From Eledone cirrhosa (taxonomy: Eukaryota), in contig OZ024743.1 in assembly GCA_964016885.1 (NCBI GenBank), positions 74,276,001 to 74,340,000 on the forward strand: DNA of 64,000 bases. Direction: 5' to 3'. Positions 7,742-63,059 of the stretch are shown here, in pieces (within the stretch, counting starts at the first letter, position 1; each line of letters begins with the position of its first letter). The position numbers and the translations under genes were made by a program. Below the pieces are notes generated by a model. That model worked only from the letters and a program-made list of their open reading frames with translations. It did not search any database and was not told the origin of the DNA.

Positions 7742-7955
7742 TAGCAGTAATACACTGATATAATTGTGCAAAAAGTAGAAACAATTATTATATTACATTC
7801 TGTCTAGCGCAACACCTGGATATTGACGTGAACCTAAACATAGAGTATTCACCTGGTTGAACCTACAGTAGCTTCGCGTTACACTCCCTGGATATATATA
7901 CACACACACACATATATATATATATATATATATATGTATAGATATATACATATAT

Positions 7956-8595
7956 CAGCTCCATTATTATCATATTTACACATATTTTTTCCTCTGCTGC
8001 CACCCGTCTGTTTCGTTCTTTGTATCTTTACCCTTTCTAGCAGTCTCTCTCGCTCTGTTAGACTCCTCCTCAACTTTCACTCACTCATTCTCTGTCACTA
8101 CCTCTCCTTTTTCTTCCCGCTTGACCTGTCCGATTTCTTTTCTCGCGCGCTCTTGGCCAAGCCGGTATGAATTTTTTTTCTCTCTCTCTCTCTCGTCTGC
8201 GACTTCACAGAACTTATGTTTACCGAATTCGCAGACCAGACCCCTTCTTCTTCCCCCCGTTAGACCTGTGCGAAATTCCTTCCTTGCTCACATTTCAACC
8301 AGGTTTGATGGTCTTTATTCTCTCGTTCACGATTTCACCGAGTTTATATTCATAGAAATCTGGAACTTGTCTCTTTCTTCTCACTTTCTGTTGCTTAAAC
8401 CATTTTGTTTGTTCACCCTAACGTCCCCTTTATTTACGTGTCCCAACGACTTTTTTTAGCCGTTGTTCGCACCAACCTGAGGTATATGGCCCTTAAAGCG
8501 ATGAAATGCCTAGGACGGTTGGAGGGCCACTGATGAAGGACTTACTTTTTCATATGTAACCCATTTGCAACGCCGCAGCTCCATTATTATCATAT
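7956..8595 (+). mobile_element. Non-coding ~620 bp repeat unit between (TA)n tracts, with a terminal direct repeat
   Basis: CAGCTCCATTATTATCATAT occurs at both ends. It shares TAAAGCGATGAAAT...CACTGATGAAGGACT...CATATGTAACCCAT with 32568-33132 (minus strand). Confidence 0.6.
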
Positions 8596-9128
8596 ATATA
8601 TATATATATATATATATATATATATATATATATATATATATATATATATATATATATATATATATGTATATATGTATAGATATATACATATATATATATA
8701 TATATATATATATATATATATATATATATATATATATATATATATATATATATTTTATATATTTATGAATAATACATATATACATACGTGAATACATGCA
8801 TACATACATAAATGTATATATATATCTATATATATTTATTTATATAAGTATGAATGTATATTTAGACACACACACACATATATATTTATATATATATATA
8901 TATATATATATATATATATATATATATATATATATATATATACGTATATATATACATATATATATATATACAAATATATACACACATGTACATACATATA
9001 CATGCATACACATACATACACGTATATAATTATTATACACGTACATATAATTATTTATCGACATTTTTGAAATATTTCCAAAGGCTTTACGTATCGTAAA
9101 AATACGTCTTATTTGTCAGGGTCATTAT

Positions 9129-9705
9129 GAGTAGTAGTAGTAGTAGTAGTAGTAGTAGTAGTAGTAGTAGTAGTAGTAGTAGTAGTAGTAGTAGTAGTAG
9201 TAGTAGTAGTAGTAGTAGTAGTAGTTGGTGGTGGTGGTGGTGATTGCGAAGTTAGTGATGGTGGAGGTAGTAAGGTGGTGTTGATGGTGGTGGAAATGGT
9301 GGTAAGGTGGTAGTGGTAGTGGTTTAGGGGGGGTAATGGTGGTAATGGTGGCGGTGGTGCTTAGGTGGTGGTAGTGGTGACGTGGTGGTGGTGTTGGTGG
9401 TAGAGGTGGTGAGGTGGTAGTGGTGGTGGTAGAGCCGGTGGTGAGGTGGTGGTGTTGGTGGTGGTGGTGGTGGTGGTGGTAGTGGTGACGTGGTGGTGGT
9501 GGCGGTGGTGATGGTAAGTCGGGGGATGTGACATGGCGGTGATGGTGGTGGTCGTAGTGGCGGTAGTGGTAGTGGTGGTGGTGTTGGTGGTGGAGGTAGT
9601 GCTGGTGGTGGTTGTAGTGACGGTAGTAGTGGTGGTGGTGGTGGTGAGGTGGTAGTGGTGACGTTGTTGTTGTGGTGGTGGTGGTGGTGGTAATGGCGGT
9701 GGTAG
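9129..9705. repeat. (GTA)n followed by degenerate (GGT)n low-complexity tract
   Basis: Seen directly. It explains the Pro/His/Thr-rich ORF 9324-9737. Confidence 0.9.
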
Positions 9706-10457
9706 TTAATGTACCTTTCCAAAGTAAATAGTATCAACTTAGTGGCTGAGGTATGACATATTTTCCATCAAGCGTTAGAGACCGCAAGAGAGGAATCTGT
9801 AAATGTTTACCACATACTTCAGCTCTCACTAAGCGTTCATTACAAGCAGCTGACCGGATCTTCATCTGGGAAACAATGGCTGCCATGGACTCGTGTCAGC
9901 CCTATTATTTATTACTGCTAAACTAACGAATTGAATAGACATATGCACCACACACACACACACACACACACACACACACATATATATATATATATATATA
10001 TATATATATATATATATATATATAAGCAGATGTGCATATACACATATATATATATATATATACATACATATATATATATATATATACACTTACATATATA
10101 TATAAACATACATATATATATATATATATATATATATATATATATATATATATATATATATATACATATACATATATAAACATACATATACATATATATA
10201 TATATGTATGTATGTTTGTTTGTTTACACACACACTATATATATATATAAGTAGATGAATATATATATTTGTATGTGTGTAGACACCGTATTTATATATA
10301 TATATATATATATATATATATATATATATAGAGAGAGAGAGAGAGGAGGGGAGAGTGAGAGAGAGAGAGAGGGAGAGAGAGAGAGAGAGAGAGAGAGAGA
10401 GAGAGAGAGAGTTAGGGAAGGGGAGAGAGAGAGAGGATGTAAAATCACTGTCAATCT

Positions 10458-60859: not shown

Positions 60860-61560
60860 TATATATATAAAACAGAGAATGTCTGTCTGTCTGTCTGTCT
60901 GTATGTCTGTCTGTCTGTCCGATCACTAAAACTCAAGAACCACCCAACCGATTGTTTTCAAACTTTACACATGTAATACTTATGGTCCTGTGGGTGTTTT
61001 GAGAAAAGAAAATTTCAAATTTTCAATGCCCTATCGCATTAGGCGATTTAACGATCCCTCTATAACTCTTAGTCTTTCTTTTTAGATAGATACATAAATA
61101 TAACGTTGCGCCCTTATAATATCTGTCTGTATGTCTGGCTGTCTGCATTACGACATTATGACGTAGCTGTGTGTGTGTGTGTGCGTGTGTGTGTGTGTGT
61201 GTGTGTGTGTGTGTGTGTGTGTGTGTGTGTGTGTGTGTGTGTGTGTGTGTGTGTGTGTGTAGTGTGTGTGTGTGTGTGTATAGTGTGTGTATATATATTA
61301 TATATATATAGTGTGTAACGTTTTTCGAAATATTTACTTCTGCGTTCACAGATTGATTTTTTTTAGTTTCACAAGATCCCGTTAAGGGTGATAGCAACGA
61401 TTCGTTGTTTAAACTTTAATCTGTTATTTTAATATATATATATATAATAACAAGATATGAACAAACGTATTTATTTCACGAGGCACGATAGGGATAAATA
61501 TATATCAAATATATAAGAACCCTAGAGCAAATCCCGAGCAACGCCGGGCCATTCTGCTAC
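60860..61560 (+). mobile_element. Non-autonomous Helitron-like element with internal (CTGT)n and (GT)n
   Basis: 5' TATAAAA..(CTGT)n..AACTCAAGAAC..CAACCGATT pattern. 3' hairpin CCCGAGCAACGCCGGG followed by CTGCTAC (CTAG-like end). Confidence 0.65.
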
Positions 61561-61740
61561 ACAATAACAATAACAAAATATAAACAAAGTATTTATTTCG
61601 CAATAAAAAATGGTAATCTGGGATGCATTTTTTTTATAAGCACAAAATGTAGACACCATCCCGAGGCCGAGGTATTCCGTACTTCTCTGTACTGTTATAT
61701 ATATAGATATATATATATATATATATATATATATATATAT

Positions 61741-62625
61741 ATATAAGAACAAAAGATGGTTAAAAGAGTTCCATGTATTTTATTATGCGCATTTCAAAAA
61801 CAAATATCATCATGCAATAACATTTGTGTTTTCATCAGATAAAATAGGAACACTTGTGAATCGTGCAGTTTTAAATCAACATATGAAAAGTAGTTTTAGA
61901 TTGATGTGTGATATTGGGAAAAAAAATGTTGAGGGGGGGGGGTGGAAAGGATGAAAAAGAGGAGGAGATGAGAGTAAAAAGTGGAGGGGAGGAGTATAAT
62001 GAGGAAGGATGAGATAGGAGGAGAGATGGGTGATATATAGAGAGAGATAGCTTTTATAACTGAGAAAAAATATATTGTTTTACATAGAGAGGTTGAAAAA
62101 CCGTTGGAAGATAATATATAAATTAAAAGAATTTGAAAATTAACGAAGAGAAAAATAATGTTAAGTTAAGTTGTGTATATTGAAGGGTTTAATAATATGT
62201 GCGATGAAAAGAAATTGTTAATATGTATTAAGAATAATATTTAAGGGTTTAATAATATGTGCGATGAAAAGAAATTGTTAATATGTATTAAGAATAATAT
62301 TTAAGGGTTTAATAATATGTGCGATGGAACTCTTTTAACCATCTTTTGATCTTATATATTTGTTTCTACTTTAGGCACAAGGCCAGCAATAACCAGTTCA
62401 TTACTGGTACTTTATTTTATCGACCCCGTAAGGATGAAAGGCAAAGTCAACCTCGGCGGGATTTGAACTCAGATCGTAAAGGGACGTAACTATGCTGGAA
62501 AGCATGGCGTCCGACCCGTTTGATCTTATATATTATGTATACTCCAGTCCTACAAACTGTAGAGTGCTTCTTATCCGATATCTGCATTGCTTTATTGTAC
62601 TACAATAAAACTCACCTCCTACATT
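61741..62625. mobile_element. Penelope-like LTR module with an inverted end, hammerhead 61776-61846 (minus), 60-bp tandem repeat and nested SINE
   Basis: TATTTTAT-CTGATGA-AAACA..TGTTTTT-GAAA-TGCGCA-TA-ATAAAATA. 61741-61773 is inverted at ~62325-62358. Same family as 56570-56760. Confidence 0.75.
62361..62518 (-). mobile_element. 5'-truncated SINE with a 16-bp TSD
   Basis: TTTGATCTTATATATT at 62345-62360 and 62519-62534. Confidence 0.88.
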
Positions 62626-63059
62626 ATATATATATATATATATATATATATATATATATATATATATTCATGTACAGATATTTCTGGACTACCCTAAGTA
62701 TTTAGTACTCTGGTGCGTTATGGTCCATCTGGTTCCTTACCACACCTCCTTCGTTATATATATATATATATATATATATATATATATATATATATATATA
62801 TATATATATATATATATATGCGCTTGTATGTAAATGCATGTGTTATTTTGAAGGTTTGCATATACTAGTATGTATAAATCATTGCAAAGCGAAGTCCTTT
62901 GTTGAACTGAATTTGAACGTGAGGCAAGGTAATGTAAGCCATTCTGTGAAGCTATATACAATAGTGGATACTTCTAGTAATTTGTAGTGTATACGTACTA
63001 AAGAAAAACTGTAAAGAAACCAGAAGTATGAAAATACAGAATACAGTCTATGAAATAAC

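Follow-up and report, generated by a model that had tools for sequence, protein, structure and literature searches.

A 64,000-nucleotide (nt) stretch of the 3.0-Gb genome of Eledone cirrhosa (contig OZ024743.1, positions 74,276,001 to 74,340,000; hereafter the window) is rich in repeats, and a word close to GAGTRYT recurs in it a short way inside the junctions between mobile elements and (TA)n runs. What does this word do for the elements that carry it? A first-pass annotation of the window had taken it for a motif common to unrelated hammerhead ribozyme families, a cis-signal either for a mobilising reverse transcriptase (RT)/GIY-YIG protein or for 3' processing. A shared cis-signal of RT/GIY-YIG elements, that is, of Penelope-like elements (PLEs), tied to the (TA)n junction is supported by our results, but a linear word is not, because the motif belongs to a predicted structure in which GAGY pairs with an upstream RCTC. 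The motif forms the 3' arm of this structure, a bulged hairpin predicted in RNA with the layout RCUC-stem-UN-GAGY-RCU, and the families bearing this hairpin are, by their sequence marks, paralogous PLEs of the Hydra clade. We consider it probable, from the sequence evidence set out below, that the hairpins dock the RT just 3' of two internal starts, one for each strand of the target.

A predicted bulged hairpin at (TA)n junctions

All 11 main words reported in the window are present (the earlier coordinates sit 1 to 2 nt before GAGT on the + strand and mark the low end of the word on the - strand), with that at 46810 deviating as GAGTATC. Ten of them lie 42 to 61 nt from the next TA run, counted from the end of the 7-mer, and the remaining one, at 50504, lies 84 nt away. 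The words had also been described as often preceded by TACTC, as mostly downstream of a hammerhead, and as set in surroundings that cannot be aligned. TACTC, which is the 5' arm of the hairpin, precedes 5 of the 11, and a full type I hammerhead fold, called with our own descriptor, lies upstream on the same strand in 5 of the 11. The last statement needs correcting, since 7841 and 13668, 28514 and 46959, 52971 and 56187, 56624 and 62560, and 50227 and 62701 can be partly aligned in pairs. Among the variants listed with them, 57892 lacks the 5' arm and is part of another, palindromic element, 13441 is doubtful, and 62701 is a stub of family c0 in which the motif has mutated to TAGTACT; reading this near-palindrome on the - strand gives the GAGTACT at 62710. 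Two further hairpins, at 12729 (+) and 60310 (-), had escaped the annotation.

The proposed enrichment at (TA)n was borne out, the motif lying 35 to 70 nt inside the junction far more often than in shuffled sequence. It occurs at 9/79 (TA)n flanks of the window (shuffle mean, 0.5; maximum, 2 in 200 shuffles) and at 55/1359 flanks of an unselected genome sample of 80 stretches of 10 kb (800 kb; shuffle mean, 7.9; maximum, 13 in 30). The antisense motif, without the palindrome GAGTACTC, occurs at 7/1359 flanks, and the flanks of other microsatellites carry the motif in 4/337 cases. In an unbiased scan GAGTACT and GAGTGCT were the top non-TA 7-mers, beside words of the same motif. The association with hammerheads likewise stood: by a crude descriptor, 17/79 flanks with a called hammerhead have the motif, versus 52/1254 others, and many of the remaining motif flanks look like stubs too short for a whole ribozyme. 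Clustering of the 81 motif flanks gave 9 clusters with at least two members and 13 singletons.

An RCTC arm and at least two further pairs, with a bulge of 2 nt in the 3' strand, accompany 43/75 of the GAGYRYT words near (TA)n, versus 19/442 elsewhere, and for the words near (TA)n other bulge sizes give 10/75 (0 nt), 1/75 (1 nt), 3/75 (3 nt), and 13/75 (4 nt). The outer pair, which was not selected in this count, is A-T in 42, G-C in 12, G-T in 6, and mismatched in 2 of 62 cases. Over 27 family-level hairpins it is G-C in 14 and A-U in 13; the inner pairs alternate among C-G, U-A, G-C, and A-U, and the second inner pair is formed in 25/27, compared with 14.9 in permutations, none of which (0/10,000) reaches the observed value. 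The bulge is UU in 16, UC in 6, UA in 4, and UG in 1, with U first in all 27; NCU follows GAGY in 21/27, TAT or ATA lies within 12 nt upstream in 24/27, and loop lengths range between 6 and 63 nt, one of the loops being C(UUCG)G, which is known as a stable tetraloop in RNA. Because GAGTRYT covaries with a distant arm, readings of it as a splice site or a transcription factor site were dropped.

Two ends in one clade of elements

Every family ends at (TA)n at two fixed points, a short end and a long end, giving a bimodal distribution. Hits terminating at (TA)n make up 44/47 for c0 and 30/37 for c1a in the unselected DNA and the window, and 15 of the 44 in c0 stop at one base and 17 at another. 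The 5' arm of a first hairpin (hairpin 1) begins 7 to 10 nt after the short end in seven families. A second (hairpin 2), seen only in tandem copies that continue into the open reading frame (ORF), begins 6 to 9 nt after the long end in four families and 6 nt after it in a fifth, c8 (one copy). It was noticed in c4 and f2, 6 to 7 nt past the long end, was predicted from these for other families, and was later found in c0 (6 nt; 8/8 run-on copies, one of them decayed, among 25 loci), c1b (9 nt), and c8; pattern searches for copies running past the long end did not find it for c1a, c2, c5, c6, or c56630, their hits being off target or insertions of degenerate microsatellite. Between each end and its hairpin lies a short UA-rich stretch. 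The fixed offset of 45 to 60 nt to the downstream (TA)n that had been proposed thus gives way to a range of 35 to 85 nt between families, and what is constant is the 6 to 10 nt from end to hairpin.

In 19 of 20 informative hairpin clusters the modal end lies 4 to 13 nt before the arm. These come from 33 clusters, of which 19 fit this offset, 1 is an outlier, 3 are simple-repeat noise, 6 have no copy ending at (TA)n, and 4 are uninformative. Hairpin 1 of c0 belongs to the uninformative clusters, and its offset was measured instead from hit ends and from raw reads of reduced-representation libraries; read support covers this one family. In two other individuals loose (TA)n read ends pile up at 829 (3805 + 3606) and at 909 (6112 + 6927) of the c0 unit L218, just before its arms at 835 and 913, and read depth drops more than 100-fold beyond the long end. 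The last three matched bases at these ends, TAT, fit element and target alike. Short ends are true termini in 52/54 cases, and the hairpin resumes past the (TA)n run in 2/54. Two candidates were set aside along the way: L160, taken as a run-on extension past a long end, proved to be the 3' untranslated region (UTR) of another element, and the GAGTACTC located 44 nt before the long end of c4 was discarded as a homologous arm because the TTGAGT that closes c4 hairpin 1 stands 85 nt before that end.

Many insertions consist of two copies joined head to head, and their ends follow a rule. One short and one long end are combined in 74/76 pairs (49% expected), two long ends in none; one long end, of L059, was counted in two pairs, and the figure is 73/75 when it is left out. 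In the unselected DNA and the window taken alone, the count is 35/36. The window itself contains three of these head-to-head insertions (Table 1). Among 40 directly abutting pairs, the short arm has sequence missing from the long arm in 21, 15 are mirror-like, and in 4 the long arm is the longer; an arm whose sequence is missing from its partner is not a fold-back copy. From palindromes at PLE junctions, PMC3846280 argues for self-priming in which the template is antisense. Contrary to that account, the asymmetry of the arms makes fold-back an unlikely origin of at least half of the insertions described here.

The elements were identified from a GIY-YIG remnant in the window (48585-49159). The element behind it is abundant, with 38,424 first-look candidates across the genome, and its 3' end forms one of the motif clusters, c4. 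Clusters c0, c1, and c6 link to further proteins of the same type; the protein link thus holds for c0, c1, c4, and c6, and c2, c5, c56630, and several singletons are without a linked protein. The families had been called unrelated. Their RT plus GIY-YIG proteins are of one type, 42 to 60% identical over their overlaps (38% for one pair), and therefore they are paralogues of one clade whose noncoding parts have diverged beyond alignment. According to Craig et al. 2021 (PMC8557442), the Hydra clade is marked by an RT followed by GIY-YIG, RWK, DKT, and a CxCX5C linker, and all of these features are shared here. Recognized by motifs, RT, thumb, linker, and endonuclease are continuous in frames of L111 and L113 and in an entire 700-amino-acid (aa) ORF of the metagenome contig L267. 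RWK stands near the N terminus in c4 and L267 (RWR in c0 and c1b), DKG is changed to DKT in c4, c0, c1b, f2, and L267, and CxCX5C precedes the endonuclease in the window (48750-48780) and in c4, f2, L011, L015, L037, L163, and L212. CCHH is absent from the endonuclease, the inspected translations having no cysteine pair within the GIY-YIG core. An assignment to Naiad, which had been considered, fails, as the endonuclease is C-terminal here; Naiad/Chlamys PLEs have it at the N terminus and have no canonical hammerhead.

By descriptor, 7 window copies and L267 have type I hammerhead folds in which helix II is long and the cores vary. No hammerhead was present among the best 150 of 159 Rfam matches in the window, and Rfam covariance models gave no meaningful match over hairpin-bearing stretches. 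For the Hydra-type proteins neither Pfam nor a sequence search of solved structures returned a match; the organisms named among 63 protein homologues are Nematostella and Holothuria. The predicted fold of the L267 protein (mean predicted local distance difference test [pLDDT] score, 85) has structures of telomerase reverse transcriptase (TERT) as its four best Foldseek matches (best, 3du5; E value, 1.3e-8; TM, 0.37). This modelled likeness fits the known kinship of the two enzymes and has no bearing on RNA binding.

The hairpins extend beyond this genome. L267, from an unrelated organism, carries a complete element in which both hairpins precede the ATG, with a protein 33 to 39% identical to those described here and a 3' copy that stops at (TA)n 6 nt before hairpin 2; L268, the other of two loci from the metagenome scan, shows a single hairpin, with no 3' end in view. 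By eye, the exact hairpin can be recognized in File S7 of PMC8557442 near the 3' end of the coral consensus Hydra-2_Amil and the sea cucumber consensus Hydra-2_Ajap, and twice before the ATG of the sea cucumber consensus Hydra-1_Ajap. Six motif 9-mers gave three matches outside Hydra in the supplement of that paper, none with a visible hairpin, in a search that line-spanning matches would escape.

Proposed docking at two starts and the alternatives

We propose that the RT/GIY-YIG protein would dock on hairpin 1 and on hairpin 2 of the element RNA, both located in the pseudo-LTR (LTR, long terminal repeat)/5' UTR, and that after cleavage of a (TA)n target each of its 3' ends would pair with the UA-rich stretch ahead of one hairpin. 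Both ends would then be extended on the RNA, and the two cDNAs joined head to head. The trailing cDNA, begun at the downstream start, would copy hairpin 1 and so yield the motif; as hairpin 1 would be copied only from that start, it is seen 35 to 85 nt inside the long junction. The one-sided tail already known from these elements would correspond to the interval from one start to the other, 80 to 169 nt here. The frequent overlap of the arms would imply either the use of two RNAs or displacement of the leading cDNA by the trailing enzyme.

A related element with biochemical data is Poseidon_Ac (Frangieh et al. 2024, PMC11167929), in which two internal starts downstream of a hammerhead bound the tail. 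Initiation there requires RNA on the 3' side of the start, cutting and extension take place on both strands, and a dimer is predicted, while the protein-binding motif is placed no finer than a 150-nt stretch. Poseidon_Ac belongs to a different clade and its starts lie inside the ORF; those described here lie in the 5' UTR, and each sits on a target-matching UA-rich stretch followed by the same hairpin, where no binding motif was defined for Poseidon_Ac. With the published Hydra clade the elements further share a predicted type I hammerhead-like fold near the 3' end, insertion in (TA)n, an inverted 5'-truncated copy, and the one-sided tail. They differ from it in their longer tails (30 to 40 nt in the clade), in 3' UTRs of about 1 kb or more, with units estimated to exceed the usual <3 kb, and in several hammerheads with a helix II of 30 to 60 nt and, in some, deviating cores. 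The parts of PMC8557442 consulted describe neither conserved or paired hairpins nor a short-plus-long rule, although its consensi carry hairpins. A likeness to retrozymes, short noncoding hammerhead derivatives of Penelope-like pseudo-LTRs (bioRxiv 10.64898/2026.07.22.740005; PMC4209133), is limited by layout. Non-LTR retrozymes are head-to-tail tandems, defined by at least two consecutive head-to-tail units with a hammerhead in each; Tandem Repeats Finder detected no head-to-tail hammerhead array in the window, whose pieces are head-to-head stubs or ends of protein-coding elements, the hammerhead copies being head to head or single.

Other systems offer likenesses of role. Telomerase uses an internal template bounded by a protein-bound RNA structure and a short primer-alignment stretch, and here too an RNA structure and a short pairing stretch would set the limits of the template. 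The hairpin is likened to telomerase RNA elements by this role and not by homology of sequence or structure; it lies 3' of the start, and copying is long and not repetitive. The RT of long interspersed elements (LINEs) reads a stem-loop in its own RNA, which is located 5' of the start and is copied. In L1 twin priming two primers from one target yield an inversion, the second primer landing at variable sites and the cDNAs not overlapping, whereas both starts here are fixed and the arms often overlap.

Several observations weigh against hairpins that position the RT. In the survey by eye, three of the six published Hydra consensi (Hydra-1_Amil, Hydra-1_Crog, and Hydra-1_Obim) have degenerate matches only, and family c6, the outlier among the clusters, ends 15 to 19 nt before the arm. 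The outer and first inner pairs of the 27 family hairpins were partly selected by the descriptor, and the families share descent. Folding is weak (z-scores, -2.2 to +0.6), the minimum-energy fold being the exact bulged hairpin in 5 of 10 stretches, the outer helix alone in 2, and neither in 3. A wobble test for the RNA sense gave G.T:A.C ratios of 51:24 over copies and 24:18 over distinct changes (P = 0.44). The 15 mirror-like abutting pairs fit fold-back equally well. In Poseidon_Ac the start is in an AC-rich stem-loop not homologous to the cut DNA and is the same on both strands in vitro, and no such motif was seen in the RNA letters of Fig. S1. By analogy with many protein-binding motifs, the hairpin may be a weak structure under selection.

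If the hairpins acted as DNA, either as single-stranded cDNA or as a cruciform of an intermediate longer than one unit, the GIY-YIG endonuclease could make both ends by cutting 6 to 10 nt upstream. Such a cut would land in a TA-rich stretch, the preferred target of the endonuclease, and the wobble test gave RNA no edge over distinct changes. In PMC8557442 the tail is ascribed to resolution of an intermediate by the endonuclease, and PMC11167929 recounts that the Drosophila virilis endonuclease needed the tail to recognize its own DNA. Both Poseidon_Ac ends are, however, starts of reverse transcription in the latter paper. The recurrent noncanonical pairs of the family hairpins lean to G.T over A.C (6 versus 2), the UUCG loop would be stable as RNA, and loops varying from 6 to 63 nt rule out a reading of plain duplex DNA; we regard cutting of DNA at the hairpins as unlikely. 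Processing just 5' of an RNA structure has precedents. If the hairpins caused a host nuclease, or the element itself, to cut the RNA or form its 3' end a few nt upstream, an enzyme starting at ordinary RNA 3' ends would leave the same DNA ends. AATAAA does follow the hammerhead in several families. It stands at no fixed distance before the long end, though, the related Poseidon_Ac initiates internally on uncut RNA (PMC11167929), and the short-plus-long pairing in 74/76 would be left unexplained, which makes such processing quite unlikely as the source of the ends.

Both hairpins stand upstream of the ATG, hairpin 2 ending about 25 to 65 nt before it, and they might serve translation or act as cis-binding signals in the 5' UTR while the UA-rich stretches alone set the ends, in keeping with the TAT or ATA close upstream of nearly all hairpins. 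These UTRs are AT rich throughout, yet ends pile up only before the two hairpins, at an offset that is constant across families that cannot be aligned, and we judge this role very unlikely to account for them. An artifact of a few high-copy repeats, or of microsatellite expansion within the elements, is hardly credible: two clusters do supply 38 of the 81 motif flanks, but there are at least 9 multimember clusters besides the 13 singletons, 27 distinct hairpins, hairpins in the unrelated contig L267 and in the published coral and sea cucumber consensi (File S7, as above), and only the 2/54 short ends past which the hairpin resumes.

The window at large and the reach of the signal

The features assigned to these elements are collected in Table 1. 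From 48585 to 53077 the window holds a chain of Hydra insertions (c4, c0, a third family, and c5), each in (TA)n beside an earlier one. The folds at 7639-7713, 13779-13865, and 52811-52891 have 50 to 62 nt between core and GAAA, and variant cores include CCGACGA and, in family f2, CAGAAGA. A young, high-copy repeat resembling a short interspersed element (SINE), with identical 119-nt matches on many contigs, occupies 62360-62520; it interrupts a c56630 copy, separating the short-end region from hairpin 1, and is flanked by a 16-nt direct repeat. The palindromic element at 57574-57960, with CTGACGA cores and a GAGCATT word in its own terminal hairpin, is common in the genome (cluster 3) and is nested in the Hydra copies L118 and L039. 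The inverted pair at 14700-15250, whose small canonical hammerheads have their cores at 14820 (-) and 15116 (+) and precede long C runs, belongs to a different family with no motif in view. Another hammerhead family, with a small helix II, a C/A-rich 3' region, and (TA)n termini, was met in L160, L200, and L210, and in L116 (4784-5164, -) a homeobox exon (RPKRSRTTFSKEQL...) lies directly upstream of a c4 element, which appears to be inserted in the intron of the homeobox gene.

Table 1. Hydra-clade features and hairpins of the window
Feature	Position	Strand	Basis
Type I hammerhead-like fold, CCGACGA core, long helix II, family c6	7639..7713	+	descriptor
Predicted hairpin 1, c6 (ATTC-TGT ... 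ACA-TA-GAGT-ATT); long end ~7891	7797..7850	+	
Predicted hairpin ACTC-TG ... CA-TT-GAGT-GCT, same family as 50470	12685..12736	+	
Predicted hairpin 1, c6; forms in minimum-energy structure	13667..13720	-	
Hammerhead-like fold, decayed core, same c6 copy as the 13667 hairpin	13779..13865	-	
Long-ended arm of c1a; hammerhead core and 5' hairpin arm decayed; GAGTGCT at 28516	28324..28583	+	
Predicted hairpin ACTC-TGC-tat-GTA-TT-GAGT-ATC, 51 nt before (TA)n	46797..46819	+	
Predicted hairpin 1, c1a (ACTC-CAG ... CTG-TC-GAGT-GCT)	46958..46983	-	
Hammerhead fold, same c1a copy as the 46958 hairpin	47042..47087	-	
Frameshifted Hydra-type linker (CxCX5C) and GIY-YIG endonuclease remnant, c4	48585..49159	+	
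3' end of c4: hammerhead region stopping at short junction, no hairpin copied	49919..50072	+	
Head-to-head insertion of c0: short inverted arm and long direct arm	50083..50280	.	
Predicted hairpin 1 of the c0 head-to-head insertion	50209-50236	+	
Predicted hairpin GCTC-TG ... CA-TT-GAGT-GCT, 84 nt before (TA)n	50470..50513	+	
Head-to-head insertion of c5: short inverted arm from 50639, long arm to 53024	50639..53024	.	
Hammerhead (52811-52891) and predicted hairpin 1 (52952-52980) of the c5 insertion	within 50639..53024	+	
Decayed hairpin 1, c5-related copy	56167..56195	+	
Hammerhead (56747-56693) and predicted hairpin 1 (56642-56623), family c56630	56623..56747	-	
Predicted hairpin with GCTC/GAGC arms (GCTC-TGGTTC-atct-GAATCA-TT-GAGC-ACT)	60303..60332	-	
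Head-to-head insertion of c56630, split by a younger repeat	61738..62624	.	
Short inverted arm of the c56630 insertion: hammerhead	61838-61784	-	
Long arm of the c56630 insertion: predicted hairpin 1	62541-62569	+	
Tail-only stub of c0, motif mutated (TAGTACT)	62681..62754	+	

The remainder of the window includes two non-LTR frames of 926 and 873 aa (38801-41581 and 43914-46535, +) with RVT_1 and a zinc finger/restriction-like C terminus, and decayed further copies at 531-5421 and 18098-26375. A 93-nt tandem repeat of 2.9 copies (27175-27444) lies by a 136-aa frame resembling a non-LTR endonuclease end, and a weak tRNA-like Rfam match at 54944-55007 (-; 29.9 bits; E value, 0.034) is probably a SINE head.

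The elements, the tail, and the inverted layout had been described before. What appears to be added to this known clade is the hairpin with its duplication and offset, together with the pairing rule; full-text searches of the open literature returned no description of them. How PLEs choose an internal start, and from where the one-sided tail and the inverted copy arise, are open questions in the field. A covarying hairpin of 20 to 30 nt, an offset of 6 to 10 nt, and the short-plus-long rule make the choice of start testable by mutation and by changes in spacing, and the hairpin can serve as a clade marker for annotating element ends.

This raises the possibility, to which we give about even chances, of a two-part start signal extending from cnidarians to echinoderms, in which two hairpins load two RT subunits on one RNA, each priming from one strand of the cut (TA)n, and which alone makes both the tail and the inverted pseudo-LTR. 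If so, the closest mobile relatives of telomerase would have in it their first defined RNA element for positioning the template, the signal could be moved to set where RNA starts to be written into DNA, and it would bear on how telomerase-like enzymes gained their internal templates.

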